Source: Escherichia phage vB_Ec-M-J. From it: a DNA stretch of 64,000 nucleotides. The stretch lies in the sequence record OQ718158.1; one strand, 5' to 3'. The notes beneath the pieces were generated by a model. That model made no database searches. It had not been told where the DNA came from and was given only the letters and a program-made list of their open reading frames with translations. This document shows, piece after piece, positions 10,970 to 63,586 of this stretch; position 1 is the stretch's first letter, and each line of letters starts with the position of its first letter. The position numbers and the translations under genes were made by a program.

Positions 10970-10997
10970 TTGACAACGCCGAATGATGTGTTATAAT
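10970..10997 (+). promoter_or_regulatory. strong sigma70-type promoter P1 (TTGACA-N16-TGtTATAAT, A-rich upstream)
   Basis: Exact -35 TTGACA at 10970-10975 and exact -10 TATAAT at 10992-10997 with extended TGn; A-tract upstream. Confidence 0.75.
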
Positions 10998-11061
10998 GAC
11001 CATCACGAAGCAAGTTTTCAAAATCACAAGATGTGAGATTGAAAAAGAAATAAAAAAGTTG

Positions 11062-11089
11062 TTGACAAGCCTGAACGATGTGATATAAT
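11062..11089 (+). promoter_or_regulatory. strong sigma70-type promoter P2 (TTGACA-N16-TGaTATAAT), tandem copy of P1
   Basis: Exact -35 at 11062-11067 and -10 at 11084-11089. Flanking sequence is nearly identical to P1 (gatgtg.TATAATGACCA). Confidence 0.75.
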
Positions 11090-11150
11090 GACCACATCAA
11101 GACGGCAAAGAGAAATGCCTTTTTAAATACACGGATGATTCATGAAGTAA

Positions 11151-11194
11151 CAAAGGAACTGATAAGTTAAAAATTCTTTTAACACAGTTCCTTT
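11151..11194 (+). promoter_or_regulatory. leader hairpin (9-bp stem aaggaactg / cagttcctt, ~26-nt loop) in the 5' UTR of the ATPase gene
   Basis: Perfect inverted repeat between P2 and ATG 11261. Confidence 0.4.
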
Positions 11195-11260
11195 ACTTTT
11201 GCCCACGGATTGGCTATAATAGAAACCTAAACGATTTTATCCAACAAAAGGAAAATATAC

Positions 11261-12589
11261 ATGTCTACTCAAAACAACGATATCCTGAACGTAAAACTGA
11301 CTCCTAAGAAAGCTAAAGAAGCAATGGCACTGGCTGACATGATTCAAGATAGCCTGATGATTTGGGGTAGCCCTGGTATCGGTAAATCTGCTATCGCACG
11401 TCAATACGCTGATGAGAACTACCCACTGCGTAAAGATAACGTGGCAAAAATTGAGTTCATGAAACAACAAATCGAAGCTGATACTGAAAATGCTGATCAA
11501 CTTCGCCGTGAACTGGCAGCGTTTGAAGCCAAACTAATCGACCAAGACACTAACTTTATCGATTTCCGTTTGTCTCAGATTGAACCAAGTGACCTTCGCG
11601 GTATCCCAGTTCCAGAGAAAGTGTTCCTTGATATGGATGGTAAGCAACTGATTGAATCTGAACTGGCTAGTGCACAAGATTACATCGCTGAAACAGCAGT
11701 TGTGTGGGCAGCACCTAAAGTACTGAAGCTGTCTCCAGATTGGAAAGGTGTTATTCTGTTTGACGAAATCAACTCTGCAATGCCGATTGTACAGGCAGCG
11801 TCTTATCAGCTAATCCTCGACCGTTGTGTTGGTGAGATGAAGCTACCTAAGACTGCACTGATTCTCGCAGCAGGTAACCGTGAAACTGATGGCGGTGTAA
11901 CGTTCTCTCTAGCTACACCACTGCGTGACCGTATGACCCACATCGAAATGATTCCTTATCATCAAGATTGGATTAACGATTATGCGATTGGTAAGCGTTT
12001 GAACCCAGCAACTGTAGCGTTCATCAACAACACTGGTGCTAAACACTTCAACACCCTTAGCCCACAAGATCCTTCTCACTGTGGTGGTACTTCTCCACGT
12101 TCATGGGAAGCAGTAGCACGCTACGAAGATCTGAAGAAAGTTAAGAACATTGATAAAGAAGTGTTCCGTGCGATGATTGCAGGTCGTGTTGGTGAAGGCG
12201 TAGCAACTGAATACATCGAGTATGTTGATAACGTAGCTAAACTACCAGATACCATGTCCATCCTACAGGGTGAGATTAAAGAGATTGATGCTTCGCTTGA
12301 TATTTCCGCGAACTACTTCATCACTCTGAATCTGGTTTACAAAATTATCGACCTCTACAATGAGAAGCAAGAACAACGTCTACCAGTGGAAGATTGGGGT
12401 AAGCTGTGCAACAACTTCATCACCTTCCTAGACCATAACTTCTCTGCAACTCAAGCAGAACTGGCAGTACTGGCGATTCGTACCATCACGCTTCATAAAG
12501 TAGCGATTACGATTAAAGATGTACCAGCGTTTAAAGACTTCGTTATGAAGTACTCTGACCTAGTACGTAAAGCACGCTCTCTTGGTTAA
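11261..12589 (+). CDS. AAA+ ATPase, MoxR/CobS-like (AAA_5-type)
   Basis: Walker A GSPGIGKS and Walker B ILFDEIN; 442 aa; AAAGGA Shine-Dalgarno; immediately followed by a vWA-domain gene, the typical MoxR/CobS partner. Confidence 0.85.
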   Translation: MSTQNNDILNVKLTPKKAKEAMALADMIQDSLMIWGSPGIGKSAIARQYADENYPLRKDNVAKIEFMKQQIEADTENADQLRRELAAFEAKLIDQDTNFIDFRLSQIEPSDLRGIPVPEKVFLDMDGKQLIESELASAQDYIAETAVVWAAPKVLKLSPDWKGVILFDEINSAMPIVQAASYQLILDRCVGEMKLPKTALILAAGNRETDGGVTFSLATPLRDRMTHIEMIPYHQDWINDYAIGKRLNPATVAFINNTGAKHFNTLSPQDPSHCGGTSPRSWEAVARYEDLKKVKNIDKEVFRAMIAGRVGEGVATEYIEYVDNVAKLPDTMSILQGEIKEIDASLDISANYFITLNLVYKIIDLYNEKQEQRLPVEDWGKLCNNFITFLDHNFSATQAELAVLAIRTITLHKVAITIKDVPAFKDFVMKYSDLVRKARSLG

Positions 12590-12613
12590 TAATTAAAAAG
12601 AGTGTTGACAAGG

Positions 12614-12640
12614 AGGATACCACATGGTATCCTTCTTTTA
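12614..12640 (+). terminator. rho-independent terminator or attenuator between the ATPase and vWA genes
   Basis: aggatacc-acat-ggtatcct hairpin followed by tcttttatc. A TTGACA hexamer sits just upstream at 12605-12610. Confidence 0.5.
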
Positions 12641-12664
12641 TCTTAACTAAACGAGGAAATACAA

Positions 12665-14074
12665 ATGTCAGATAAACGTTTCAGTGATGTTACTCCGGCT
12701 CTCCAGAAAGAATGTCAAGATCGTCTGATCTTAGCTCGCACATCTTTAATGCTAACATTCCCATTCTTTGGTGTACTGGCTTCTCGTCTGCGTCCAGTTG
12801 CAAACAACACATGGTGTCGTACTTTGGCTGTAGATGGTAAGCATTTATTCTACAACGTAGAATTCATCATGGGTATTCAGGACCAATCCAAAAAGTCAGC
12901 ATACGAAGAAGCAATTCGTGAGAAACATCCTGAAGTAACTGAAGAACAACTTAAAGAAATGACAGAAGGTTTGACCGATGAAAACCTGATTGCAGTTATC
13001 TGTCATGAGATTCTTCACTGTGCATATGACCACTTCTTGCGTCGTGGTATGCGTGACCCGCAGCGTTATAACCGTGCTGCTGACTATGCAATTAACCAGA
13101 TTCTTGTTCGTGATAAAATTGGTAAAATCCAAAGCCAATGGCTGTACGATAAAAAGTACGATGGTATGACTGCTGAAGAGATTTATAACATTCTCGAAGA
13201 AGAAGATAAGCAGGATCAAGACGGAGAAGGTGAAGGAAATCCACAGGCTGGTAGTGGTGAGGGTGAAGGTAAATCACGCGGTACTTTTGGTGATATCAAA
13301 GATGGTAAAGGCAAAGGTACAACAATTGACCAGCATGACGTTCCACAAGAAGGTCAAGAGGGTGGTTCAAGTGAGAAACAAAAACGTGATTATATGGATG
13401 ATTTCAAAACAGCAATGATGAATGCTGCTCGTGCAGGTGGTACTCCTGCTGAAATCGCACGTATGATTAACAACTTCAAAGAACCTAAGATTGACTGGCG
13501 TTCCAAACTTCACCGCACACTGCGTAGCTGGTTGAAGTCTGATGCAACTTATCAAAATCCTAATCGTCGTTCATGGGGTGCTGGTTTTGGTAGTTCTGGT
13601 TCATTCTACGGGAATCCAATCTTCCCTGGTATGAAACCAGATGATGATATTGATATTGCAATTGCACTAGATGCATCCGGTTCTATCTCTGAAGATATGC
13701 TCCGTGATTTCATCAGTGAAGTACTGGGTATCACTAAGCAGTTTAAACAATTTAAAATCCGTATCATGACGTTCGATACTGAAGTTTATACTGTTAAAGA
13801 TTACAAAACTGGTGAAGAGAGTAAGATTCTCGAATATCCAGTGAAAGGTGGTGGTGGTACTGACTTTGAAGCAGTATGGGTTCATATGAAGCATGACAAC
13901 TATAAGCCTAAACAGCTTATTATGTTTACCGATGGTGAGCCGTGGCAGTCATGGGGTGATCCTGATTACTGTAAGACACTGTTTGTTATCCACAGTAATC
14001 CTAACAAACAAGCACCATTTGGCGAAACTGTACACTACGAATATGAAGCTGACAAAAAGCGTCAACGTAGCTAA
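12665..14074 (+). CDS. vWA-domain protein with N-terminal HExxH putative metallopeptidase (DUF2201/CobT-like)
   Basis: HEILH motif in the N-terminal half; C-terminal vWA MIDAS-like residues DASGSIS ... GGGTDF ... FTDGEP; Gly-rich acidic linker; GAGGAA Shine-Dalgarno. Confidence 0.8.
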   Translation: MSDKRFSDVTPALQKECQDRLILARTSLMLTFPFFGVLASRLRPVANNTWCRTLAVDGKHLFYNVEFIMGIQDQSKKSAYEEAIREKHPEVTEEQLKEMTEGLTDENLIAVICHEILHCAYDHFLRRGMRDPQRYNRAADYAINQILVRDKIGKIQSQWLYDKKYDGMTAEEIYNILEEEDKQDQDGEGEGNPQAGSGEGEGKSRGTFGDIKDGKGKGTTIDQHDVPQEGQEGGSSEKQKRDYMDDFKTAMMNAARAGGTPAEIARMINNFKEPKIDWRSKLHRTLRSWLKSDATYQNPNRRSWGAGFGSSGSFYGNPIFPGMKPDDDIDIAIALDASGSISEDMLRDFISEVLGITKQFKQFKIRIMTFDTEVYTVKDYKTGEESKILEYPVKGGGGTDFEAVWVHMKHDNYKPKQLIMFTDGEPWQSWGDPDYCKTLFVIHSNPNKQAPFGETVHYEYEADKKRQRS

Positions 14075-40568: not shown

Positions 40569-40610
40569 GTTTGTCTCCAAAATAAATCGGGTATATCTTT
40601 ATTTACCTTG

Positions 40611-40638
40611 TTGACAAACGCAAAGAATGTGATATAAT
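40611..40638 (+). promoter_or_regulatory. strong sigma70-type promoter (TTGACA-N16-TGaTATAAT), third copy of the P1/P2 family
   Basis: Exact -35 at 40611-40616 and -10 at 40633-40638 with conserved gaatgtgaTATAATG context. Confidence 0.75.
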
Positions 40639-40676
40639 GTTTATTAATTAGAGTGACTACTCATTTAGGAGAATAC

Positions 40677-42965
40677 ATGAATCTTACCCAATTATTCAAA
40701 AAAAGCGACGAACTGGCAACTTCTCTGGGTCATACCTTCTTGACTATTGACCATCTAAGTGCTACAGTACTGACAATCGATAGCATCAAAGCAGTATTTG
40801 AAGATATGAACATCGATGCAGACAACCTACACGGTCGTTTGATTGCATATCTGAAGAATACAACATTCCCACATGCACCTAAAAGTGCTGATGGTGATGA
40901 AGCGAACCGCACATCACTTCTCGTGAACCGTGTAGTTCAGGAACTTTCTAAGAAATCAGTAATTGAGCAACTTAAACGTGATGATTTCTCAATTGATGCT
41001 TATTTTGTACTGTTTGAGTGTTTGTCCTTCCCAAATACTGCACTAGAAGCAGCATTGCGTGAAGAGGGTATCACTTGTACTGAAGCAGCACGAACTCTAC
41101 AGAAGCACGTAGAAGCAATCGACAACGGAATCAACCTTCAAAGCATTAGTGATGAGCCAACTGGGGAGAAAAAAGTGGCACAACAGCAACCATCGTCCAA
41201 ACAAAAAGGTTTAGAAGATTACACCACTAACCTAACCGCACTTGCAAAAGAAGGTAAACTTGACCCAATGATTGGTCGCCAGAAAGAGCTTTCTGCACTG
41301 ATTGAAACTCTGGCCCGTAAGACTAAGAAGAATGCCATCCTGACTGGTGAAGCTGGTGTTGGTAAAACTCAAATCATTGATGGTCTAGCACAGGCAATCG
41401 CTGATGGTGAAGTACCAGAGCATCTTAAAGATGTTGAAATTCTGTCTCTGAACGTAGGTGCACTGACGGCTGGTACTAAGTACCGTGGTGAGTTCGAAGA
41501 ACGTATCGATAACCTACTAAAAGAACTGAAGAAACGTGAAAACACTATTGTGTTCATCGATGAAATCCATATTATGGTTGGTGCTGGTTCAGCAAGCAAC
41601 GGTTCTATGGATATGAGCAACATGCTCAAACCTGCACTATCTCGTGGTGAGATTCGTGTAATCGGTGCAACAACTTACGATGAATATCGTAAAAACATCG
41701 AAAAAGATAGTGCACTAACTCGCCGTTTCATGAAAATTGATGTAGTTGAGCCAACAATTGATGAAACCCGTGCGATTGTGAATGGTTTGAAATCTACTTA
41801 TGAAACTTTCCATAACGTAGAGTTCAGTACTGAAGCAATGGATGCAGTTATTACACTAAGTGATAAGTTCCTGAAGAACAAACACTTCCCTGACAAAGCA
41901 ATCGACCTAATGGATGCGGCAGCAGCGAAAGTACGTTCTCGTGAAACTGATGATAACATCATCACTGTTGCACTGATTCAAGAAGTTGTTGCAGGTATCG
42001 CAAACCTAGATATTAACGTGGTTGCTTGCACTGAAAGTGAACGTATGCGTAATCTACCAGATGCACTGCGTTCTCGTGTATACGGTCAAGAAGAAGCAGT
42101 ACAGAAACTGGTTGATAACGTGATGGTAGCTCGTGCTGGTCTGCGTGATAAATCAAGTGTTCAAGGTGCATTCATGTTTGTTGGTCCATCTGGTACTGGT
42201 AAAACTGAAATTACCAAAGCACTGGCTGATGCAACTGGTTCTGAACTGATTCGTTTCGATATGTCCGAGTTTTCACAGGAACATACTGTTGCTAAACTGA
42301 TTGGTTCACCTCCAGGCTATGTTGGTCACGATTCTGGTAACGGTCTGCTACTCGACAAGATTGAGCAGTTCCCGAATGCAGTACTGTTGCTTGATGAAAT
42401 CGAAAAAGCTGATCGTAAAGTACTACTAACCTTCCTACAGGTTCTGGACGAAGGACGTTTGACTGGTTCACAAGGTAAAACTGTTTACTTCAATAACGTA
42501 ACTGTTATTATGACGACTAACCTTGGTGCAGCAGATTCAACCAAGCGTAGTATTGGGATGAGCGGTAGTGATACAGCACAAGATAAAGCTATTAAAGCAT
42601 TCTTGCCACCTGAATTCATCAACCGTATCGATAGTATTGTGACATTCAAAGACCTAAGCAGCGAAGCGATTGACAGCATCATTGATAAGTTCATGGGTAG
42701 TCTGAATGAACAAATCAAAGACCGCAAAGTTAAAGTTTCCCTGACTAAAGCGGCACGTGAGTGGTTGGCAACAAATGGTGTTAAAGTTGGGATGGGTGCA
42801 CGTCCAATGAAACGCACTATTGAGCAAAACATCCGTGTTCCACTAGCTAAAGAGATGTTGTGTGGTTCTCTAGTTAATGGTGGTAACGTGACGTTTGATG
42901 TGATTGATGGTAAATTGGCTATCAAACCTAAACGCACTAAAGCAGTAGAAAAAGTTATTGCGTAA
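40677..42965 (+). CDS. ClpA/ClpB-like AAA+ unfoldase (two nucleotide-binding domains)
   Basis: Track start 40653 is GTG; ATG 40677 has an AGGAGA Shine-Dalgarno. NBD1 Walker A GEAGVGKT and Walker B VFIDEIH; NBD2 Walker A GPSGTGKT and Walker B LLLDEIEKA; Clp-N-like N-terminal repeats. Confidence 0.9.
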   Translation: MNLTQLFKKSDELATSLGHTFLTIDHLSATVLTIDSIKAVFEDMNIDADNLHGRLIAYLKNTTFPHAPKSADGDEANRTSLLVNRVVQELSKKSVIEQLKRDDFSIDAYFVLFECLSFPNTALEAALREEGITCTEAARTLQKHVEAIDNGINLQSISDEPTGEKKVAQQQPSSKQKGLEDYTTNLTALAKEGKLDPMIGRQKELSALIETLARKTKKNAILTGEAGVGKTQIIDGLAQAIADGEVPEHLKDVEILSLNVGALTAGTKYRGEFEERIDNLLKELKKRENTIVFIDEIHIMVGAGSASNGSMDMSNMLKPALSRGEIRVIGATTYDEYRKNIEKDSALTRRFMKIDVVEPTIDETRAIVNGLKSTYETFHNVEFSTEAMDAVITLSDKFLKNKHFPDKAIDLMDAAAAKVRSRETDDNIITVALIQEVVAGIANLDINVVACTESERMRNLPDALRSRVYGQEEAVQKLVDNVMVARAGLRDKSSVQGAFMFVGPSGTGKTEITKALADATGSELIRFDMSEFSQEHTVAKLIGSPPGYVGHDSGNGLLLDKIEQFPNAVLLLDEIEKADRKVLLTFLQVLDEGRLTGSQGKTVYFNNVTVIMTTNLGAADSTKRSIGMSGSDTAQDKAIKAFLPPEFINRIDSIVTFKDLSSEAIDSIIDKFMGSLNEQIKDRKVKVSLTKAAREWLATNGVKVGMGARPMKRTIEQNIRVPLAKEMLCGSLVNGGNVTFDVIDGKLAIKPKRTKAVEKVIA

Positions 42966-42974
42966 AAAAGAAAA

Positions 42975-42997
42975 GGAGAGCATTTGCTCTCCTTTTT
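42975..42997. terminator. bidirectional rho-independent terminator
   Basis: ggagagc-attt-gctctcc hairpin flanked by an A-run and a T-run, between convergent genes. Confidence 0.75.
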
Positions 42998-42998
42998 G

Positions 42999-45900
42999 TT
43001 ATTTAACTTCTAATAGATTTTTAATGTCAGTACCACTTATTTGCAAACTATCGGAGTAAACAGATAGTTCGATTGGATAACTGTTAACACTATAACGTTT
43101 TAGTAAATTAACTTTACCTAAGTTCAAGCCATTAAATGAATATGTCACATTCTCTTTAAAGTCGTGTTCTGCACTATACATTACCCCACAGAGTAAGTTA
43201 TTTGCAAAACGTACTTCAACTTTTTCAAAACCAAGAGAAATAATATCATTCATACTTGCACCAGCACCAGATAGAACATTATTAGTAACACTATATGGAC
43301 TAACTGAATCTGGTTGTGAAACATAAGTAGTATTTTCTTCACTGATAGCAGTAATGTTAGTTACTGTTCCACCAACTACACCAATATATGTATCACTAAC
43401 TAGTGGATATGCATATTCCCATACCCCTTCAGCATTCAGTACTGGTTGAATAATACCAACATCATACTCGAACACGTTAATTTCCACACTATCAGTCATT
43501 TTGGTTCTCACTAACTCACTAAGAACACCTGCACCAGTAATTGGTAAGTTATATCCGTTATCAATGGTAACACCATCAACTTCAAATATCTCGTTAGACA
43601 CTACCCAAACATCAACGTCATCTGGTGTAATTCCATCATTATAAGAACCACCATATAGTGTTGTGTCGTAGAATACTTCATAGTTCATTGCGTCGATAGC
43701 ATAGTTTCTATTTGTTTCATACAACTTAACACCATCAACCAAGAATTCTGGATCAGAAAAGGTTCTAATACGAACGATGTTCAATGCTAGAGGTATTGCT
43801 GGTTCATTCTGTTGTTGTTTAGTGATGTTATCATAACGAAGTACAACTCCAGTACTATCTAGTAGTTCTACAGTTCCGTTCGCAGTGTTTCTTACTGTGT
43901 ACAAGGTTGGTGTGGTGTCAGTTTTGATTTTTGATACACTCAAGATGGTTTCCCATGCATTGTTTTGGTATCTCACGTAATCTTCACCATCAGTTGTGAA
44001 TATCATAACCTTATCACCATCAGATAGGGTATTGTCAATTACTTCAGCTTCTGTATCACTAACAATTGATTTTATTTTATAGAAGTATTTTTCATCATAC
44101 TTACTGTATGATTTACTAATATCATTTTCAATCTTAGCGTAAGAAGGAATACTAACAATTGCTTCTGTTGTTTTATAAGGGTTGATGATAACCATACCTT
44201 CAGTTTTATATCTACTATTGTCTCTCAATTGAACTAGTGAAACACTATTGAATCCATAACCATCAACTGTGAAGCGAATCTGACCAATCTTTCTTCCTGA
44301 TGGGTTAATATCAGAAATGTCGATTATGTACGGATCTACTTCGTCACCTTCAACTTCCCATTTTAACTCGGAAGTTTGTGATTCAAGTGCTAGGTTATCA
44401 AATGCATTCATATCATCGTAGTACTTAGCATCGGTGATGCTATCTAGGATGTGCTGATAATCACTGTACATTGGGTTATTTCTATCAAGAGGTAAGTCAT
44501 CAAGATTTATTTCTGCCAATTGAACTAGTTGACCGTCAGTTATGAATTTGTCTTCCATGAAATCATCAATGCTTTGGTCATCTGGGATACTCTCGTATAC
44601 ACCATTAACATTAACATAAACATATTTTCGTGGCATCATAGTAAATGCATGAATATCAATAGGCATTCTACTTAATATTTCTTCAGCCTTTTCATAATGG
44701 TCGGTAGCATCTTTGTCATACAAACCACGCATACCAGACAATACATGAATTGCGTCATTGTAGAATCGTTGATTTCCATCTTCATCTACATGGCGATATG
44801 AATAAACACCATATTCAACTTCAAGTATAATTCTAACTTCATCATCAGTTGCAGTAGTATTGTTTTCTTTAATTAAAGAAACATACTTTTTATACAACTC
44901 ACTACTAACTTCAAAGTAACCAAAGTTATAATCAGTACTGGATGCATAACCAAACGGTAGTCTGGTACTTGGATTATCATCATAGGTTAACCCACTAAAT
45001 CCACATCCAACCTCATCATGAATTACTTCATCATCTGCACCTGTGTACAATTTCAAACGGTTAGAGAGTGTGTTATACTGAACATAATGATTTACGTCAT
45101 TAAACATTTCATTTTGTGTTGATTCTTTATATACACGATTCAACGTTTCTGTGAATTCTGCGGTTGCTACCAAATCATCTGCATGGTCTGCATACCATTG
45201 GTTAACACCGTAAGCAATCCCTAGAGTTACGTTCAATTCTGGGTAATACAATTGCATCTGATAAGCAACCAATAGGTCGAAATCTTCATCACTGTATTCT
45301 GGGAATGTATATTTGTAACGTTGTAATTCAAAATTACTAACAACATCTTGTGCATTAGATTGATATTTCTTATTCACTTCTTCCAATACATCAACACTTG
45401 CCAAATTATCATTTGGTTTACATTGAGTGTTGTCGTAGTGCATGATAACATCAATTTCTTGGAAACGGCGATTAGGTGTTACGAAATCACTTGGCAATTC
45501 ACCAACTTGCTCCCAACGTTGAGTTACCTCATTGAATTGAGCATATTCATAATCCCAAATGTCTTTTTCCGTTTTAACCCAAGTCCCATCTGCAAATATA
45601 TAGCCATTAGGATCTAAATCATTACACAAACCTTTAATTAAATCATCATCTGAAGTTTTCTGTTCAATCTGGGAACGAATCTTAGTTCTATATGGTTTAA
45701 CTTCTTCAAAGTACTCAACGATTTGATTAATCAAGTTGTCGTTGGAATAGTTCTGTACTAATGATTGTTCTAAACCTACAATATAAATGTAAGATGTTTT
45801 GAATACCCAATCAACAACGCTTTGTTCTACGTGAACATACTTAACCATATCAAACACAATTTCACTCTGATGTAAGTCGAATGAGTTCTTCAATAAAGCT

Positions 45901-48900
45901 AGTGCTTTACGAACGTTAATCTCACGATTACTCAACGAACCATTAGCATCACGAACTGTATAGTCAGCGTATAACATATCATTCAATTCAACTGTACTAT
46001 TTTCACGACCAATTGCTTTCCAGTAAACTGAATCACGTGATTGTGCTTTAATGTACAATGTCCAGATGCCATCAACATCTGTAATTCTGATAATGTCACC
46101 AACTTGATAGTTCTTAGTGTTTGCATCTTCTAGGCTGGATTCTTGTGTATATGCAGTATTTTTATCGTAGCCAATATCATACCAATCTGCTAGTGACCAG
46201 TACTGGGTCATGTCCAATGAAGTTCCTAGTGCTTCAACATAGTCTGATTGTTTAATCATTTTCTGTTGACCTTCACCACGGTTTTCCAATGTAATGGTAA
46301 CCACACTACCAGCACTTGATGGACTATTCATTAGATGAATATAACCATTAGCATCAATATGCACAAAATATACAGAGCTAGTTGATAGTGGGTTAGGTAA
46401 TACACCACTAGTACTTACTAGTACTGCGTCGTTTTCTTTGAACTTGTCACTTTCAGGTGCAATGACTAATTCACTATTGTAAGTTAGTACACGATATGAT
46501 ACTTCATTCGGGTTAACTTCAGTAGTTTTAACATTAAACACTTCGTCCATTAGAACAGTGTTAGTTGTTATATTCTGTGAGCGATAATAGTTATTTGCAC
46601 TTTCTACAAAGTTTCTACGAGCTTCAATTACATCTTGGAACCAAGTCTTATTAGAACCTAAACCGTTTGGTACTAAAGGATATAGTAAATCAATAACAGT
46701 TCCTGATTCAGTAGTTTCTTGACCAATCATAGAATTCCACATAGAAGTCCAGATTGATGGATTGAAGTTATAGCTATCACCTTCTTTACATAATTGATAC
46801 TGGTCATGTTTAATAACTTCAGTATTATCCATGTAATAAGAAACAGTTAAAATACTTGTGTCATCGTTGACTTCAAATTGCATATTACTTAGAATGAACG
46901 AGCTTTCATTGATTGGTGCAAACCAAGGAATGTTAAGCTGTGCTGGTTCTTTAATAATACGAGCAATATCAGTACAAGATTTAGTTCTGGAATGCAATGG
47001 TGGTACATAGATTGTATCACGAACCCAGAAATAGTATTTTGTAACATAAGTATCAGTTGTGCTATCATATTCTAAGAACGTACTATAATTATCTTCCAAT
47101 GCGGTTCCGCTTGGTAGGTACATAGTGTTGTTTTTATTTTTGTTAGCAACGTCTTTGCAGTATTTGTCCCAGTTATATGGTTCAACTGGTGAACATACCC
47201 ATTCAAGAACATCAACAGTACTGTGCGGTAGCAATCTGCCCCAGTTATAACGTTTATATTCATTTGTTGCATCAACATCCACATTACCATCAGCATCATA
47301 GATTGCACGAGTGTAATCTAAGTAGAAAGCAGTGCTGGTGTTCCACCAAACCTGACCAACTTTATCAGCACCCCATGCTTGAATCAATTCACCATTGCTG
47401 TTGTATTGTGCTGGGTCAACTGGAGATGTGTAGGTAACGTTCTGCATCGCTGCACCAGGAATAACACCGTTGATTGGGTCAAACACGTTTAGGTACAACG
47501 CAGTAATGTTAGTACGCTCATCATATGTGGTTGGGCGGTCAAACAAAGTACTTTGTGGAGCTTTAAAACTATATTTTCTGTCAATGTATTCCTGACGCAT
47601 CTCTTCAGTACTGAATCGTGAAACATAACGATACAAGCGTGGGCGAGTATCAGGATCAGTGAAGTCAATAGTGATTGAAGTGTCAAACGGAACTACCATA
47701 ACTCTAGGGTCATTACCCGCAGTATAATATTGACTTTCTATAGTCAATGTATCTGGCATAAAGTTAGTTTCATCAACAAAGTAATAATAATCACCATCAT
47801 TTAGTGGGATATCATCACTTAGAGTTACTTTACAGAATTGTTCTGCATATACATCGGTATTTTCAATTGGAACGATAGAGAGCATCTCAACTTCAGTGTC
47901 TACTAGTTCGAAAATATTCCACAAATCATTACCATCTTTAAACATCCATACAGAATCTGGGATTTCACCACTGTTATTCATATAATTGATACGATCATTA
48001 TATGCAGTACTGAAATCTTTAGTAACGTATGAAATTTCATCTAGTGTTACAGGACCAATGTCTGGAAGTTGGATATTCTCACTTCTTCCACTACGCATTG
48101 GGAATGAAAACTTACCATTTGGACGAGTAATCCAGCGTGAGTCAACCCCTTGTTCACCGTAATAAACAATACCATTACCAGTACCATTTGATGTAGCATT
48201 AACATCAAACGAAACCATCTGTGGTTGTTGTTTAAATTGGTCATTGATTAGTTTAAATTGTAGATTTTTCTTACCATTGATATTACCATAAGTACCAATC
48301 TTAAATGCCCATTCCTGAAGTGCTTTATATTCATCAGTGTCGTAAGATTTAGAAACGCGTAGTACTTTTTCCATTACTTGGTTAGTACCTTTGTCATGAA
48401 TGAATCCTTTATAGAAATCAACACGACTAACATCACTACTAATCATACGTTGTAGATAATCACGAGTTTGATAGCCAATCAAGTGATTTGATAACTCTTG
48501 AAGCTGAACATCACTCACAGGAGTTTCACTATTATAATATAATTCAAAATCAGTTACTAATTTTTCAAATGATGGTAAAGTTCCTGCTTCTAGGATAATG
48601 AAACCAGGTGCTTGTAGGCGACCAGTCCATGACCCAGTAATGTAACCATACATTTTAATCAATTCTTGAATAGCACCATAAGTTGGTTGGTAAATGTAAT
48701 CACCAAAGATAGTTTTATCATCAAAAACAACTGCGTGTTCATATGAACTTAGGCTCAAACGAATCAACGCCATACGTTTTTGTGATTCAGTTGTAGTTCT
48801 CACTGTGAATACGTTACCGATACGCGAAGTTTCGATTTCATATTGACGGATACCTTGGTTTTCATCATCGAGTAGTGACCAAACACCACCACTATTCTGT

Positions 48901-51900
48901 GTAACAGATTGAACTGAACCAAAATCCGCACCAAATTTAGCATTAGCTGCACTTGGAGTACAGGAGATGAACTCACCAGTACTTAAATTATTCTGACTCC
49001 AAATAACAAAGTCTTTAGCAATAGTTGTCCAGTCTTGTTGAGTACCACTATCATTTACATCTTCAAAAATCCAGCCATGTTCTTTTAGATATTCACCATA
49101 TCCACAAATGAAAGTATAAACTTCTTGGTATGTATTGAATATTTTACCATATTCTAATGTACCTTCAGATTTCCATTCATTGTAATGAACAACAGTTCTG
49201 TCTTCCAATTTAAGAGTTACTTTTCTTCCATTTTTAACTGGAATTTTATATTTAAATTTAGCACCAACTAAATCATAACCATCAATTTGATATGCACTAC
49301 CATTCCAAGTAATTTTTACTGCACTCATTTGCTCATCGCGAATGTTATTAGAACGAACTAGACCGATAGTTTGGTTTTCTTGTGAAATCAAACCGAAAGA
49401 TTTAGCAGTGAATGTCAATTGGTCTGCTTTAGTAAAGCCACCAATTTTGTGAGCGACATTGACATAAGAAGAACGAACAACGTCACCGTATTTGGTGGTA
49501 ATGTTCTTATTCTGATACATCAAATAGTCACTAACAAACATTTGATAACCGATAGTACGGGTGTTTTTCTCACCATGTACTAATGTAGTACTGTCAAAGT
49601 TTAGACGCTTACGGGTTTCACCATAAAGGAACTGTGAACCATCAGTATAAACTGGTTTAAGGTTATCATTACGGGTATCCCAGTAATAGTTTGCAAACTG
49701 TGCTGGTTTTGCTTTGTATAGAAGAAGCATTTGGTCATAAGCAAACATCGCAGTGTTCATGTAAGTGAATTCCATGTCACCCATGTCACCATAAGACCAC
49801 GGTTCTGCACGATGATCTAAATTACCACTAACAAGACCTAAAACTTCAGGTGCAATATACTCAACTTCACAAATATCAATACCAGTACTGGTTTTCTCGC
49901 CAGTCTTAGTGATTTTAAATGGCTGTACACCGAAACGCTTGTATTTGTCATATTGACCACGGCGTTCACCTGACAAAATAGTACCAGTACTGCTATCACC
50001 GATAGTACCATCAATATCCCACAATCCACTTGGGACCAAATCACCATTTTCATTCATTACTAGTGCTTCATACACATAAACAACATCACCCTCACGTTCA
50101 CCAACTTGAACTGCGGTTGGTTCGTATTCTTGGTTCCACCAAGTAGGACGTTGAGAGAAGCCCATCATTTCCCACGGATGGGTTGCTGGACGATATGTGC
50201 CATATTGGTCAGTATAGATTGCACGCCATGAACCACGAGCAGGAATTTCAGTACGTTGACCATCAACAACATAATAACTACCAGTATAGTTCCAAGTTCT
50301 CCAGTTATTTGCATCATAATCATGAGTACTGTTACTAATGCCATTGGTTGCTGTGAAGTTAATGTAACCACGTAGTAATAGAGTTTTCTTTTCTTCTGCA
50401 CTATAATCAGTACCAGTGAAATATGGAGTTGGGAATAGGTCTTCACTGTTTAGTACTGGTTTATAATCAATATCCTTGAAAGTAAGATCAATACTATTAA
50501 AGATACGATTTTCCAATTCAAAAACTACGTCATCCATTTTATCAACACCATTGATAACACGGTATGCTTTTGAAATAATACCAGTATGACTGATATTATA
50601 ACAGCTAGATTTACTACCAGCAGTTAAGAATGTTGCTTTTTGTGGTGTATAAGCTTGCAAAATACCCAAGAACTGTGGAGTTGGTGGGACAAATGCACGA
50701 ATAAACCCAGCAGTGCTTGCAACGTTGTCATAGTAGAATGGGAATGTACTATCACGTCCCATATTAATAGCTGTTAGAATCGCATCTACGATGTTTGATG
50801 CACTATTACCAAGAAAAGCACTTGGGTCTTCTTCATACAAACGAAGCATTTGAGTGTTGAACTTGTTAATGAAGCGGAAGTATTCTGCTTGCATAAACAT
50901 GATTGATTCAAACAAATCAATATCTTCATTAGCGGTATGTGCCATTAGTGGTAACATGGACGCTTCGTTTTGAATAATTTTAGTGCCTACACCATTATTA
51001 ACCAAACCAGCAGCCAAACGTTCTTCGTAATTGTTAAAGTCATCAGCAGAACCAGATGTAATATTCTTTTGAATAATATCTTGGAAGTGCAGGGTGTAAT
51101 CACCTTGGTTGATGTATTCAATGTTTGAATTATATGGGTTATTTTGTAGATTAATTGGAACTTCATATGCACCCAACTCTTTATTAGGAGTGATAGTGCT
51201 ACTATAAGTTCTGATTTGTACAACAGAATCTTCATCCAAATCAACAGAGCTATCAATTGTAATACTTTGTACTTGATTATTAACTACAGTTTTTGTGTAT
51301 TCTTTTATTTCCACACCATCAACAACTAGTTCGATAATATCATCAGAATTATCTAGTACTTTTTGTGCCAATTCAAATGTATGATTGTACTTAACGCTTT
51401 GTACCCCATCACCAACGATAACATGCCAATCAAGATATGTTTCACGTTCTGCTTTGTAATATTGATAAGTTCTGTCAACTTCAATTACATAAGCATACAT
51501 TCCTTCAACTGGGTCTTTGAAACTTTCCATGTCATAAACAGTACTGAACACGCGGAACATTACTGTACGTTCAACCTGTGGAGTTTGTTTAACATATTGT
51601 TTGGAGTATTCAGTACTACGAACCCAATCAGTTTCTAGGTTCATTGTATTACCTTCACCAATTACGTTATAGTAATATAGTCCATCAATTTCAACTTCCA
51701 CACCCAAATGCTCGTAAGTATAACGAGTTGATTGTAGGAAATTCTCATATGTGTAATAATTGTAATCACCTAGTTCAATGTTATAACCATAAACGCTATC
51801 AGTTGCATAATTATAGTTAATTTTAAAACCAAATAGTGAAGAACCAGTAAAAGTACTTGATGGATAGGTAGTAGTGTTGTTTAGTTTAACACCATTACGG

Positions 51901-53000
51901 TCATACAATTGGAATTGTGGAAATACGTTCACAGAAGTTTTAGACTGTGCTTGAATCCAATGAGAACCGTCCCAATACATGGAACTGTTACCAAATTCAT
52001 TACCTTTGATAATAAGAACTACGTCACCATCTTGTGGTTCACCACTCGGACGGCTTTCAGATTCTTCGTCTGGGTCTAATGCTAGACCATACACACGTGT
52101 TCCATCTTGCATACGTTTAACATATACTTTATAAATTCGGTTGTTTTCACCATTGTTACCAATACTGGTGAAAAGAATACGCATACCATCTTGTGGAATA
52201 ATACCATCAATACGTATACCGCTGTTAATATCTTTTTGTACGATATCTTCAGGTTTAATAATATCAGAGAACAAATCAACTGTCCCACGGAATTTAGTAC
52301 CGTAGTTCATTAGTTCGATATTTTTATTGTATTCGATAATTGGTGCACGAGCACGAACAAAACGGGAATCTTGCATTAGTTCTTCAGTTAGGATAGTACC
52401 ATCTTCTAAAGTTTCACCTAATGTGTACCAGAAGTTTTGTAGTGACCAAGTGTTACCATTTTCTGCACCACGTTCCATTACAATATAATCTGGAGTTGTG
52501 ATATTATAGCTATTCTTGGAATCCCATAGGTATGAACTGTAGTTGTTCATTTTATTTGGGTTAATTGGTGGGGTCCATGAATAGAACTTACCATTAAACA
52601 AACGGCTTTCATTTTCGGTTAGTGCACCGTAATGATTCATATAGCCAACTAGATCATCATAAAATTGAATTGAACGAATGCTGGAGTTATCATTTCTTGA
52701 GACATACGCAGTGGACAACTGATATAGTTGACGTGCGACTGTTGACTCGTGTAAGAAGATGTTCCCTGCTGCTGCCGGAGAACCCATGTCACCAATGTAG
52801 CCGTCAACTAATTCGTTTTCAGCCGGATTAAACCATTGTTGGATAACATCATCACTGACTTTCTGAATATCTTCTAAGCCTTGCATCCACTCAGGCAATC
52901 TTTTTATGAAAAGCTTCTTCTGTACTGCTTCAGCCATCTGTGTAGGTTGAAACTTAAAATTATTAGTCATTTTTGGACTCCATATAATTCGTTCATTCAT
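42999..53000 (-). CDS. giant virion protein (3333 aa); probable baseplate/fibre protein in the gp7 position
   Basis: Uninterrupted 10-kb ORF directly downstream of gp25-like and gp6-like genes; Y/N/W/T-rich beta-type composition. ATG 53000 lacks a Shine-Dalgarno; in-frame ATG 52970 has GGAG. Confidence 0.75.
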   Translation of the reverse strand: MNERIIWSPKMTNNFKFQPTQMAEAVQKKLFIKRLPEWMQGLEDIQKVSDDVIQQWFNPAENELVDGYIGDMGSPAAAGNIFLHESTVARQLYQLSTAYVSRNDNSSIRSIQFYDDLVGYMNHYGALTENESRLFNGKFYSWTPPINPNKMNNYSSYLWDSKNSYNITTPDYIVMERGAENGNTWSLQNFWYTLGETLEDGTILTEELMQDSRFVRARAPIIEYNKNIELMNYGTKFRGTVDLFSDIIKPEDIVQKDINSGIRIDGIIPQDGMRILFTSIGNNGENNRIYKVYVKRMQDGTRVYGLALDPDEESESRPSGEPQDGDVVLIIKGNEFGNSSMYWDGSHWIQAQSKTSVNVFPQFQLYDRNGVKLNNTTTYPSSTFTGSSLFGFKINYNYATDSVYGYNIELGDYNYYTYENFLQSTRYTYEHLGVEVEIDGLYYYNVIGEGNTMNLETDWVRSTEYSKQYVKQTPQVERTVMFRVFSTVYDMESFKDPVEGMYAYVIEVDRTYQYYKAERETYLDWHVIVGDGVQSVKYNHTFELAQKVLDNSDDIIELVVDGVEIKEYTKTVVNNQVQSITIDSSVDLDEDSVVQIRTYSSTITPNKELGAYEVPINLQNNPYNSNIEYINQGDYTLHFQDIIQKNITSGSADDFNNYEERLAAGLVNNGVGTKIIQNEASMLPLMAHTANEDIDLFESIMFMQAEYFRFINKFNTQMLRLYEEDPSAFLGNSASNIVDAILTAINMGRDSTFPFYYDNVASTAGFIRAFVPPTPQFLGILQAYTPQKATFLTAGSKSSCYNISHTGIISKAYRVINGVDKMDDVVFELENRIFNSIDLTFKDIDYKPVLNSEDLFPTPYFTGTDYSAEEKKTLLLRGYINFTATNGISNSTHDYDANNWRTWNYTGSYYVVDGQRTEIPARGSWRAIYTDQYGTYRPATHPWEMMGFSQRPTWWNQEYEPTAVQVGEREGDVVYVYEALVMNENGDLVPSGLWDIDGTIGDSSTGTILSGERRGQYDKYKRFGVQPFKITKTGEKTSTGIDICEVEYIAPEVLGLVSGNLDHRAEPWSYGDMGDMEFTYMNTAMFAYDQMLLLYKAKPAQFANYYWDTRNDNLKPVYTDGSQFLYGETRKRLNFDSTTLVHGEKNTRTIGYQMFVSDYLMYQNKNITTKYGDVVRSSYVNVAHKIGGFTKADQLTFTAKSFGLISQENQTIGLVRSNNIRDEQMSAVKITWNGSAYQIDGYDLVGAKFKYKIPVKNGRKVTLKLEDRTVVHYNEWKSEGTLEYGKIFNTYQEVYTFICGYGEYLKEHGWIFEDVNDSGTQQDWTTIAKDFVIWSQNNLSTGEFISCTPSAANAKFGADFGSVQSVTQNSGGVWSLLDDENQGIRQYEIETSRIGNVFTVRTTTESQKRMALIRLSLSSYEHAVVFDDKTIFGDYIYQPTYGAIQELIKMYGYITGSWTGRLQAPGFIILEAGTLPSFEKLVTDFELYYNSETPVSDVQLQELSNHLIGYQTRDYLQRMISSDVSRVDFYKGFIHDKGTNQVMEKVLRVSKSYDTDEYKALQEWAFKIGTYGNINGKKNLQFKLINDQFKQQPQMVSFDVNATSNGTGNGIVYYGEQGVDSRWITRPNGKFSFPMRSGRSENIQLPDIGPVTLDEISYVTKDFSTAYNDRINYMNNSGEIPDSVWMFKDGNDLWNIFELVDTEVEMLSIVPIENTDVYAEQFCKVTLSDDIPLNDGDYYYFVDETNFMPDTLTIESQYYTAGNDPRVMVVPFDTSITIDFTDPDTRPRLYRYVSRFSTEEMRQEYIDRKYSFKAPQSTLFDRPTTYDERTNITALYLNVFDPINGVIPGAAMQNVTYTSPVDPAQYNSNGELIQAWGADKVGQVWWNTSTAFYLDYTRAIYDADGNVDVDATNEYKRYNWGRLLPHSTVDVLEWVCSPVEPYNWDKYCKDVANKNKNNTMYLPSGTALEDNYSTFLEYDSTTDTYVTKYYFWVRDTIYVPPLHSRTKSCTDIARIIKEPAQLNIPWFAPINESSFILSNMQFEVNDDTSILTVSYYMDNTEVIKHDQYQLCKEGDSYNFNPSIWTSMWNSMIGQETTESGTVIDLLYPLVPNGLGSNKTWFQDVIEARRNFVESANNYYRSQNITTNTVLMDEVFNVKTTEVNPNEVSYRVLTYNSELVIAPESDKFKENDAVLVSTSGVLPNPLSTSSVYFVHIDANGYIHLMNSPSSAGSVVTITLENRGEGQQKMIKQSDYVEALGTSLDMTQYWSLADWYDIGYDKNTAYTQESSLEDANTKNYQVGDIIRITDVDGIWTLYIKAQSRDSVYWKAIGRENSTVELNDMLYADYTVRDANGSLSNREINVRKALALLKNSFDLHQSEIVFDMVKYVHVEQSVVDWVFKTSYIYIVGLEQSLVQNYSNDNLINQIVEYFEEVKPYRTKIRSQIEQKTSDDDLIKGLCNDLDPNGYIFADGTWVKTEKDIWDYEYAQFNEVTQRWEQVGELPSDFVTPNRRFQEIDVIMHYDNTQCKPNDNLASVDVLEEVNKKYQSNAQDVVSNFELQRYKYTFPEYSDEDFDLLVAYQMQLYYPELNVTLGIAYGVNQWYADHADDLVATAEFTETLNRVYKESTQNEMFNDVNHYVQYNTLSNRLKLYTGADDEVIHDEVGCGFSGLTYDDNPSTRLPFGYASSTDYNFGYFEVSSELYKKYVSLIKENNTTATDDEVRIILEVEYGVYSYRHVDEDGNQRFYNDAIHVLSGMRGLYDKDATDHYEKAEEILSRMPIDIHAFTMMPRKYVYVNVNGVYESIPDDQSIDDFMEDKFITDGQLVQLAEINLDDLPLDRNNPMYSDYQHILDSITDAKYYDDMNAFDNLALESQTSELKWEVEGDEVDPYIIDISDINPSGRKIGQIRFTVDGYGFNSVSLVQLRDNSRYKTEGMVIINPYKTTEAIVSIPSYAKIENDISKSYSKYDEKYFYKIKSIVSDTEAEVIDNTLSDGDKVMIFTTDGEDYVRYQNNAWETILSVSKIKTDTTPTLYTVRNTANGTVELLDSTGVVLRYDNITKQQQNEPAIPLALNIVRIRTFSDPEFLVDGVKLYETNRNYAIDAMNYEVFYDTTLYGGSYNDGITPDDVDVWVVSNEIFEVDGVTIDNGYNLPITGAGVLSELVRTKMTDSVEINVFEYDVGIIQPVLNAEGVWEYAYPLVSDTYIGVVGGTVTNITAISEENTTYVSQPDSVSPYSVTNNVLSGAGASMNDIISLGFEKVEVRFANNLLCGVMYSAEHDFKENVTYSFNGLNLGKVNLLKRYSVNSYPIELSVYSDSLQISGTDIKNLLEVK

Positions 53001-57514: not shown

Positions 57515-57551
57515 AAAGATTTCCTCATTATTATTTATAGTACTGAAATAT

Positions 57552-63541: not shown

Positions 63542-63586
63542 CTTTTTGATTCTCCATAAGAAGGGAACATTTGATGTATTTATACG

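Follow-up and report, generated by a model that had tools for sequence, protein, structure and literature searches.

ClpA of Escherichia coli (758 aa; structures 1KSF/1R6B, 6W1Z, and 7UIV in PDB) is the closest described system to the gene considered here, which encodes a ClpA-like unfoldase and is situated, together with its promoter, at positions 40,611 to 42,965 of a 64,000-nucleotide stretch of DNA (the window) of Escherichia phage vB_Ec-M-J (sequence record OQ718158.1). E. coli ClpA is built of an N-domain, a linker, and two AAA+ modules, D1 and D2, the second of which bears a helix-loop-helix and is completed by a D2-small domain; the tip of the loop is the tripeptide I617-G618-L619, and no middle domain separates the two modules. 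ClpB, Hsp104, and ClpC share with the phage protein the class-I two-ring Hsp100 fold, the N-domain type, and D2-small, but they possess a coiled-coil middle domain which the phage protein lacks. ClpB and similar ClpP-independent relatives are devoid of the ClpP-docking loop, and ClpX, whose N-terminal domain binds zinc and whose loop is of IGF type, has only one AAA+ module. The accepted consensus of the docking tripeptide is (L/I/V)-G-(F/L) (PMC8745299), while the cryo-electron microscopy of ClpAP revealed that I620 of ClpA also enters the ClpP pocket and that H621 as well as Q622 and R614 make polar contacts with ClpP residues R192 and E26, respectively (bioRxiv 10.1101/820209).

Clp genes are not new to large phages. 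In the study of Attai et al. (2018; PMC6102473) ClpA was reported to be highly conserved in most Rak2-like phages, and Iyer et al. (2021; PMC7824862) counted ClpA, ClpX, ClpP, and ClpS as genes of jumbo phages and proposed that they act as translocases or in virion assembly. The window belongs to Asteriusvirus, one genus of the Rak2-like jumbo myoviruses, whose genomes measure about 350 kb, and 2.7 kb around clpA are 99.8% identical to Escherichia phage Ecwhy_1, 99.1–99.5% identical to WPEC3, Turkey3, EC.P1, fEgEco12, and others, and approximately 85% identical to the group of PBECO4, 121Q, and phAPEC6. The encoded protein is 100% identical to the “ClpA-like protein” of Ecwhy_1 (QAY00476.1) and to protein cluster P0001, falls into a 90% identity cluster of 69 member sequences, and matches the family phrog_4871 (“ATP-dependent protease”) over its full length (E = 0, 1019.9 bits, residues 2–756 on profile positions 11–761 of 764). 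Described Rak2-like members of the family are RaK2_00069, GAP32_229, 121Q gp581, phAPEC6 gp246c, and Ecwhy1_197, the window protein being 92.8% identical to that of phAPEC6, 75% to that of RaK2, and 61% to that of GAP32. Public annotations call these proteins ClpA-like or ATP-dependent Clp protease subunits; databases and papers thus already record the gene, the family to which it belongs, and the fact that Rak2-like phages conserve it, and the window copy, which has the same neighbours and orientation as its orthologues, is an ordinary member with no material difference. Phrase searches of the searchable literature found no functional studies of phage-encoded ClpA or ClpP.

The reading favoured here, with a probability of roughly 0.55, is that the phage ClpA serves as the ATPase in a ClpAP(S) protease encoded by the phage and pairs with the phage's own ClpP. 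Its gene forms a monocistronic unit, which is opposed in direction to the surrounding tail and baseplate genes and stops at a bidirectional hairpin; unmodified host sigma-70 RNA polymerase would read it from the consensus early-type promoter. The product would assemble as a hexamer and dock with its D2 helix-loop-helix, tipped by I-G-M, on a tetradecamer of the phage ClpP, whose gene lies about 87 kb from clpA, and a phage ClpS-like protein might serve as adaptor; the resulting protease would unfold and degrade selected host or phage proteins during infection.

The ClpA type of the protein, which is 762 aa long, is evident from several comparisons. The best match among solved structures is E. 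coli ClpA (E 5.6e-178), aligned in one stretch with residues 17–741 of the phage protein on residues 20–734 of ClpA at 44% overall identity (N-domain 29%, D1 51%, D2 45%), and the ClpA model TIGR02639 is spanned end to end (residues 10–749 on 4–733 of 734). Pfam matches comprise AAA in D1, AAA_lid_9, AAA_2 in D2 (E 3.4e-49), and ClpB_D2-small (E 1.3e-21). The N-terminal domain (40677–41126, plus strand, as are all parts of the gene given below; approximately residues 1–150) is of a divergent Clp_N type: Clp_N is recognized weakly and in its first repeat only (residues 11–59, E 3.3e-4, 21.2 bits versus a cut-off of 20.7), the phmmer alignment with E. coli ClpA begins at residue 17, and the structure model is helical over residues 3–148. 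D1 (41211–42017; Pfam AAA and AAA_lid_9) carries Walker A GEAGVGKT at 41346–41369, the KYR pore loop at 41472–41492, Walker B IVFIDEIH at 41547–41570, and the RR fingers at 41715–41729. D2 together with D2-small (42018–42926; Pfam AAA_2 and ClpB_D2-small) carries Walker A GPSGTGKT at 42183–42206, the GYVG pore loop at 42309–42329, Walker B VLLLDEIE at 42381–42404, the arginine finger at 42615–42632, and the GARP sensor-2 at 42792–42809. By motif comparison all these elements are intact in both modules, and the Walker, KYR and GYVG pore-loop, arginine-finger, and sensor motifs are shared with E. coli ClpA. The original prediction, made from the sequence alone, had described a full two-domain Clp/Hsp100 ATPase of ClpA type with both Walker A and Walker B pairs, and this description stands. 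The phage protein is close to certain to be an active ClpA-type unfoldase. In the AlphaFold2 model (mean pLDDT 79) only four parts, namely, the linker, the D1 pore-2 loop, the docking-loop tip, and the C-terminus, are predicted with low confidence. The model and the fold search, in which the closest PDB folds to the model were ClpC/ClpA-type chains and the highest identities of 46–48% belonged to ClpA chains (TM up to 0.84 on the target), did no more than confirm the ClpA/ClpC-type fold.

Two other assignments within the Clp/Hsp100 proteins were considered. ClpX matches only D2 and does so weakly (E 6.7e-11; tblastn 3e-6), and the phage protein has two AAA+ modules. More attention is due to a disaggregase of ClpB/Hsp104 type, working with DnaK and needing no peptidase, since the NCBIfam ClpB model and ClpB structures in PDB are matched strongly and one fragment of the orthologue in phage CMSTMSU is labelled “ClpB protein.” However, the matches to ClpB fall into two stretches flanking its middle domain, as they do with ClpC and Hsp104 and with the NCBIfam models of ClpB, ClpV, ClpK, and ClpG, whereas ClpA aligns continuously; the spacing between D1 and D2 is the same as in ClpA, with a gap of 2 residues only, and a ClpA-type docking loop is present. 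The original prediction had named a ClpB-type middle domain together with the loss of the docking loop as evidence for a disaggregase; the former is absent and the latter is retained, so that a ClpB-type disaggregase is ruled out by its missing middle domain and next to no weight is left for it.

The equivalent of the ClpA IGL loop is a helix-loop-helix at 42519–42608 (residues 615–644), which aligns with residues 606–637 of E. coli ClpA, and its tip I626-G627-M628 (42552–42560) takes the place of I617-G618-L619. The alignment with ClpA, which the original prediction proposed as a check on a loop that could not be judged by eye, has a divided outcome: the loop is kept, but its tip is not the canonical [LIV]-G-[FL]. 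The context of the tip is R-S-I-G-M-S-G-S in the phage protein versus K-S-I-G-L-I-H-Q in E. coli ClpA. The loop was surveyed in 111 cluster representatives of the phage clade, which are 54–100% identical to the window ClpA and set off by a gap from bacterial ClpA (about 40–45%). The commonest tips are MGM, IGM, IGV, LGM, IGA, LGL, MSM, IGG, MNM, and VGF; positions 1 and 3 of the tip are hydrophobic in 97% and 85% of the representatives, while this holds for at most 4% in most flanking loop columns, and the loop has a length of 24–25 residues in 103 of them. In the structure model pLDDT falls below 50 at residues 624–630, as is expected for a flexible loop. A polar and flexible loop of constant length with a hydrophobic tip resembles a docking element which continues to be used, its specificity being relaxed or altered.

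The candidate partner of this loop is encoded by the phages themselves. Local tblastn found no ClpP or ClpS homologue within the window, and the statement of the original prediction that no ClpP-like peptidase is present is correct for the window but not for the phage, which would possess ClpP and a ClpS-like protein elsewhere in its genome, as judged from the near-identical genomes of fEgEco12 and Ecwhy_1 with clpA 99–100% identical. A tblastn search with E. coli ClpP matched dozens of Escherichia, Klebsiella, Salmonella, and Erwinia jumbo phages. In fEgEco12 the ClpP is the product of g207 (231 aa; Pfam CLP_protease, E 1.3e-41), situated among nucleotide-metabolism genes, and in Ecwhy_1 the clpP gene at 228682–229374, about 87 kb from clpA, encodes a 100% identical product. 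Phage ClpP was present in 71 phage records of the same genera that have the full-length ClpA, its Ser97-His122-Asp171 triad is retained by each of the 8 Rak2-like lineages examined and by the Pseudomonas jumbo phage PA5oct, and it is 66–70% identical across genera and therefore under purifying selection; it is distinct from the T4-type prohead protease of the same phages (phAPEC6 gp227c). The ClpS-like protein (177–181 aa) was likewise found in 71 phage records with a taxon make-up as for the full-length ClpA, and its GAP32 representative, GAP32_314, matches Pfam ClpS with E 9.4e-11. Consequently, a ClpP with its catalytic triad intact and a ClpS-like protein occur with ClpA in the same near-identical genomes. 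At E ≤ 1e-12 the Rak2-like enterobacterial phages gave no ClpX-type ATPase, which leaves ClpA as the sole Clp/Hsp100-type partner found for the phage ClpP.

The neighbourhoods of the two partner genes contain several further proteins. Within 5 kb of clpP in fEgEco12 (PP777464.1, 75600–86169) are encoded an HslV-family peptidase g216 (phrog_1040, E 2.6e-22), whose apparent Kae01 counterpart CDS_137, paired with it by length and annotation only, is abundant (81 spectra), a 202-aa protease g214 with an N-terminal hydrophobic segment and a weak CLP_protease match, and a 75-aa DnaJ-type zinc-finger protein g200. The ClpS-like gene lies directly 3′ of a phage homologue of IF3 (Pfam IF3_N and IF3_C) in both fEgEco12 (PP777464.1, 249307–254837) and GAP32. 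In phage CMSTMSU (MH494197.1) the orthologues of clpA and clpP are each annotated as at least two fragments, for example “ClpA (x2) | ClpB protein,” and sequencing frameshifts seem a more likely cause of this fragmentation than real gene decay.

Among the possible roles proposed originally was the redirection of host proteolysis, which would require the phage ClpA to bind the ClpP of E. coli. The tip I-G-M is still of the hydrophobic-Gly-hydrophobic form and close to I-G-L of E. coli ClpA, early expression would place ClpA in a cell full of host ClpP, and a mixed use of both peptidases would be possible. However, the phage has its own conserved ClpP, which makes dependence on the host unnecessary, and the residues by which E. 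coli ClpA contacts ClpP beyond the tripeptide are replaced, I620, H621, Q622, and R614 being Ser, Gly, Ser, and Lys, respectively, in the phage protein. The pocket residues of host ClpP are presumably conserved among enterobacteria, yet the tips vary (IGV, IGG, MNM, and LGH) among phages of similar enterobacterial hosts. Because the phage encodes its own ClpP, the redirection of the host enzyme is not the simplest reading, and it is regarded here as quite improbable.

The peptidase side of the interface has also diverged. When compared at the 14 E. coli ClpP residues which contact the IGL loop (bioRxiv 10.1101/820209), the phage ClpP differs at most positions, including the non-conservative replacements F82S, Y60T, L114G, F49W, and R192P, and the rebuilt pockets of the clade show F82S/N/C/Y, Y60T/S/V, L114G, and F49W/Y. 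Moreover, the C-terminus of all Rak2-like ClpPs is lengthened by a conserved tail of about 19 residues, such as GPRNEEGKYLVKRRGGVEEWV, with the pattern G..N..G..V.RR......WV, which continues from the strand forming one wall of the ATPase-docking pocket and is absent in the ClpPs of E. coli and PA5oct. The latter phage (NC_071039.1) also encodes homologues of ClpA (41% identity), ClpP, and ClpS; unlike the window protein its ClpA has the canonical tip I-G-F, and its ClpP, which has a more bacterial pocket, is nearer to the bacterial form (46% identity to E. coli). Since a bacterial-type pocket accompanies a canonical tip there, the canonical docking state is probably ancestral, the Rak2-like enterobacterial clade being the one that drifted. 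PA5oct additionally has ClpX and a DnaJ adjoining clpA, and its four Clp genes lie within about 26 kb; in E. coli clpS adjoins clpA, which is not the case for the phage-borne gene of the window.

A bolder proposal may be put forward tentatively, namely, that Rak2-like phages run a private, host-insulated protease, in which the ClpA tip co-diverged with the rebuilt and tail-extended pocket of ClpP and a degradation code specific to the phage comes from a divergent ClpS-like protein whose N-degron pocket is altered. The phage ClpA and the phage ClpP would then pair mutually and not with host ClpP, ClpA, or ClpX. By itself the phage clpA adds little, being an ordinary and already annotated family member whose value is that of a lead; what is added here is the retention of the loop with a non-canonical tip and the placement of ClpA in a dispersed three-gene Clp set with a docking interface unlike that of the host. 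In a whole clade of jumbo phages ClpA, ClpP, and a ClpS-like protein are maintained by purifying selection, and their docking interface is unusual. A host-insulated protease, if confirmed, would give phages a takeover tool of a new kind, by which proteins of the host or of its defence might be degraded selectively or amino acids recycled for the very large virions, and it would offer synthetic biology a ready-made orthogonal degradation module.

Several points speak against a phage-encoded ClpAP(S) protease and are gathered here. As to interaction, activity, and timing of any family member the literature gave mentions in genome papers only. The cut-offs for ClpA equivalogs are not reached (TIGR02639, 752 bits versus 993.15; NF008263, 648.7 versus 1350), and the protein is therefore termed ClpA-like and not an equivalog. 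Methionine at the third position of the tip is outside the docking consensus, a canonical tip occurs in just 19 of the 111 surveyed representatives, the glycine is lost in 19 (MNM, MSM, and others), and some have IGG. The three tip columns stand at the 87th, 61st, and 93rd percentiles of D2 column entropy in these representatives, that is, among the most variable in D2, and such variability could equally mean a relaxed docking constraint. Within the clade the ClpP pocket has a mean pairwise identity of 52% versus 67% for the whole ClpP. Tips and pockets paired across 8 Rak2-like lineages include IGV with bulkier Y82/F112 in K64-1 and IGG with Y189 in EJP2; these patterns are only suggestive of compensation, 8 lineages being too few to tell co-evolution from drift. 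The Asteriusvirus ClpS-like protein is tied to the GAP32 copy by homology only (E 3e-31) and has no Pfam ClpS match of its own, and its N-degron pocket residues are partly replaced, for example, by H66N and M40A. Finally, the clpA, clpP, and clpS-like genes are dispersed and do not form one operon.

The same variability of the tip, with its lost glycines, would suit an unfoldase or chaperone which acts independently of ClpP, for example, in the folding, assembly, or quality control of the tail, the baseplate, or the adjacent 3333-aa protein. In favour of such a function clpA has the same tail and baseplate neighbours in five Rak2-like lineages, PA5oct clpA is also near structural and tail genes and a DnaJ homologue, Iyer et al. 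suggested translocase or virion-assembly roles, and the Kae01 orthologue copurifies with particles in a >300-kDa fraction. On the other hand, the genomes are broadly syntenic and a conserved position says little, the length of the loop and its hydrophobic tip are retained in a polar context, and a conserved and intact ClpP would be left partnerless, as no other Clp/Hsp100-type ATPase was found. Taken with the promoter and proteome data given below, a purely chaperone-like function is judged unlikely, and ClpA as the ATPase of the phage's own ClpP is preferred.

The promoter of clpA (40611–40638, plus strand) is of sigma-70 type, with −35 TTGACA at 40611–40616, a 16-nt spacer, and an extended −10 TGTGATATAAT, in which TATAAT lies at 40633–40638 and TG at 40630–40631. 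Its two hexamers match the consensus at 12 of 12 positions, and it is one of 3 exact TTGACA-N16–18-TATAAT sites in the window, where 0.21 were expected from shuffles (3 sites were reached in 1 of 100 shuffles), which bears out the claim that the gene stands under one of the strongest promoters of the window. All 3 sites have a common 16-nt spacer and an ATGTG(A/T)TATAAT element. The extended −10 is at the same place in the orthologues of phAPEC6, GAP32, and Kae01, and RaK2 has TTGACA-18-TATAAT. The other Clp genes have promoters of similar form: in fEgEco12 that of clpP is TAGACA-16-TGTGATATAAT and that of the IF3-clpS pair is a perfect TTGACA-17-TATAAT.

A promoter of this type contrasts with T4-like late-promoter octamers TATAAATA, which are found on the minus strand at 57539, 25 nt upstream of ATG 57514, and at 63584, before two tail-lysozyme/baseplate-region genes opposite in strand to clpA. 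A further motif containing TAAATA (GTATTTA on the plus strand) within 40569–40610 on the minus strand is kept in five genera upstream of the divergent structural gene adjoining clpA, and these motifs suggest that Rak2-like phages may use T4-type late promoters. Since the clpA promoter is of sigma-70 type, unlike the late-type motifs of the tail-region genes, early expression by unmodified host polymerase is a reasonable inference, which would fit poorly with a chaperone for tail assembly; in the original wording of a consensus early promoter the consensus is confirmed, while “early” follows from the promoter type only. The main text of the PA5oct RNA-seq study contains no gene-level timing of clpA, which also goes unmentioned in the papers on phAPEC6 and fEgEco12.

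At the protein level the Kae01 orthologue (70% identity) was detected by liquid chromatography-tandem mass spectrometry (17 spectra) in the lysate fraction retained by a 300-kDa filter, which fits an assembled oligomer; in the view of the authors of that study this fraction cannot assign proteins to the virion. ClpA is absent from the virion proteins of phAPEC6 (62 proteins) and CBB and is without an ESI-MS/MS note (tandem mass spectrometry with electrospray ionization) in PA5oct. The Kae01 detection comes from a crude >300-kDa retentate, and ClpA, being missing from the virion proteomes, is unlikely to be a virion component; the virion-assembly role mentioned in the original prediction finds little support in these proteomes. 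The PA5oct ClpP bears an ESI-MS/MS note, which marks virion association, and one peptide of the CBB ClpP was found in a virion preparation (PMC5259590), ClpA being undetected in these PA5oct and CBB preparations.

The region contains one long open reading frame on the plus strand, which extends over 40653–42965 if counted from an upstream GTG. The likely start codon of clpA is ATG 40677, giving a coding sequence at 40677–42965 with the stop codon included; this start is preferred because an AGGAG ribosome-binding site, read from the sequence at 40667–40671, is located 5 nt before it and because the same start is annotated in Ecwhy_1. GTG 40653 was rejected as the start, since ATG 40677 has the ribosome-binding site, the public annotation, and a workable distance from the predicted transcription start. 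The span of 40,611 to 42,965 assigned to the locus originally thus runs exactly from the promoter through the stop codon, and the original observation proved right in all details open to a check, its interpretation in part. Downstream, a bidirectional intrinsic terminator hairpin at 42970–42997 with a 12-pair stem and T runs on both strands separates clpA from the convergent gene of the 3333-aa virion protein on the minus strand. The clpA gene is the sole plus-strand gene within a block of minus-strand tail and baseplate genes, and gene-order comparison demonstrated the identical arrangement in Ecwhy_1, phAPEC6, RaK2, GAP32, and Kae01.

The convergent open reading frame of 3333 aa (42999–53000, minus strand) is annotated in EJP2 as D-alanyl-D-alanine carboxypeptidase, and its orthologues phAPEC6 gp245 (381.9 kDa) and Kae01 CDS_265 have been detected by mass spectrometry. 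In PA5oct clpA directly follows the gene of a full DnaJ homologue and is also near structural and tail genes. The other two exact TTGACA-16-TATAAT promoters of the window, at 10970 and 11062 on the plus strand, are arranged in tandem before the gene of a 442-aa AAA-type ATPase (11261–12589; phrog_1297, E 2.9e-105), and the next gene (12665–14074, plus strand) encodes a DUF2201 putative metallopeptidase with a VWA-like domain, so that a pair of a MoxR-like ATPase and a VWA/metallopeptidase protein (10970–14074) is placed behind the same early-type promoter as clpA.

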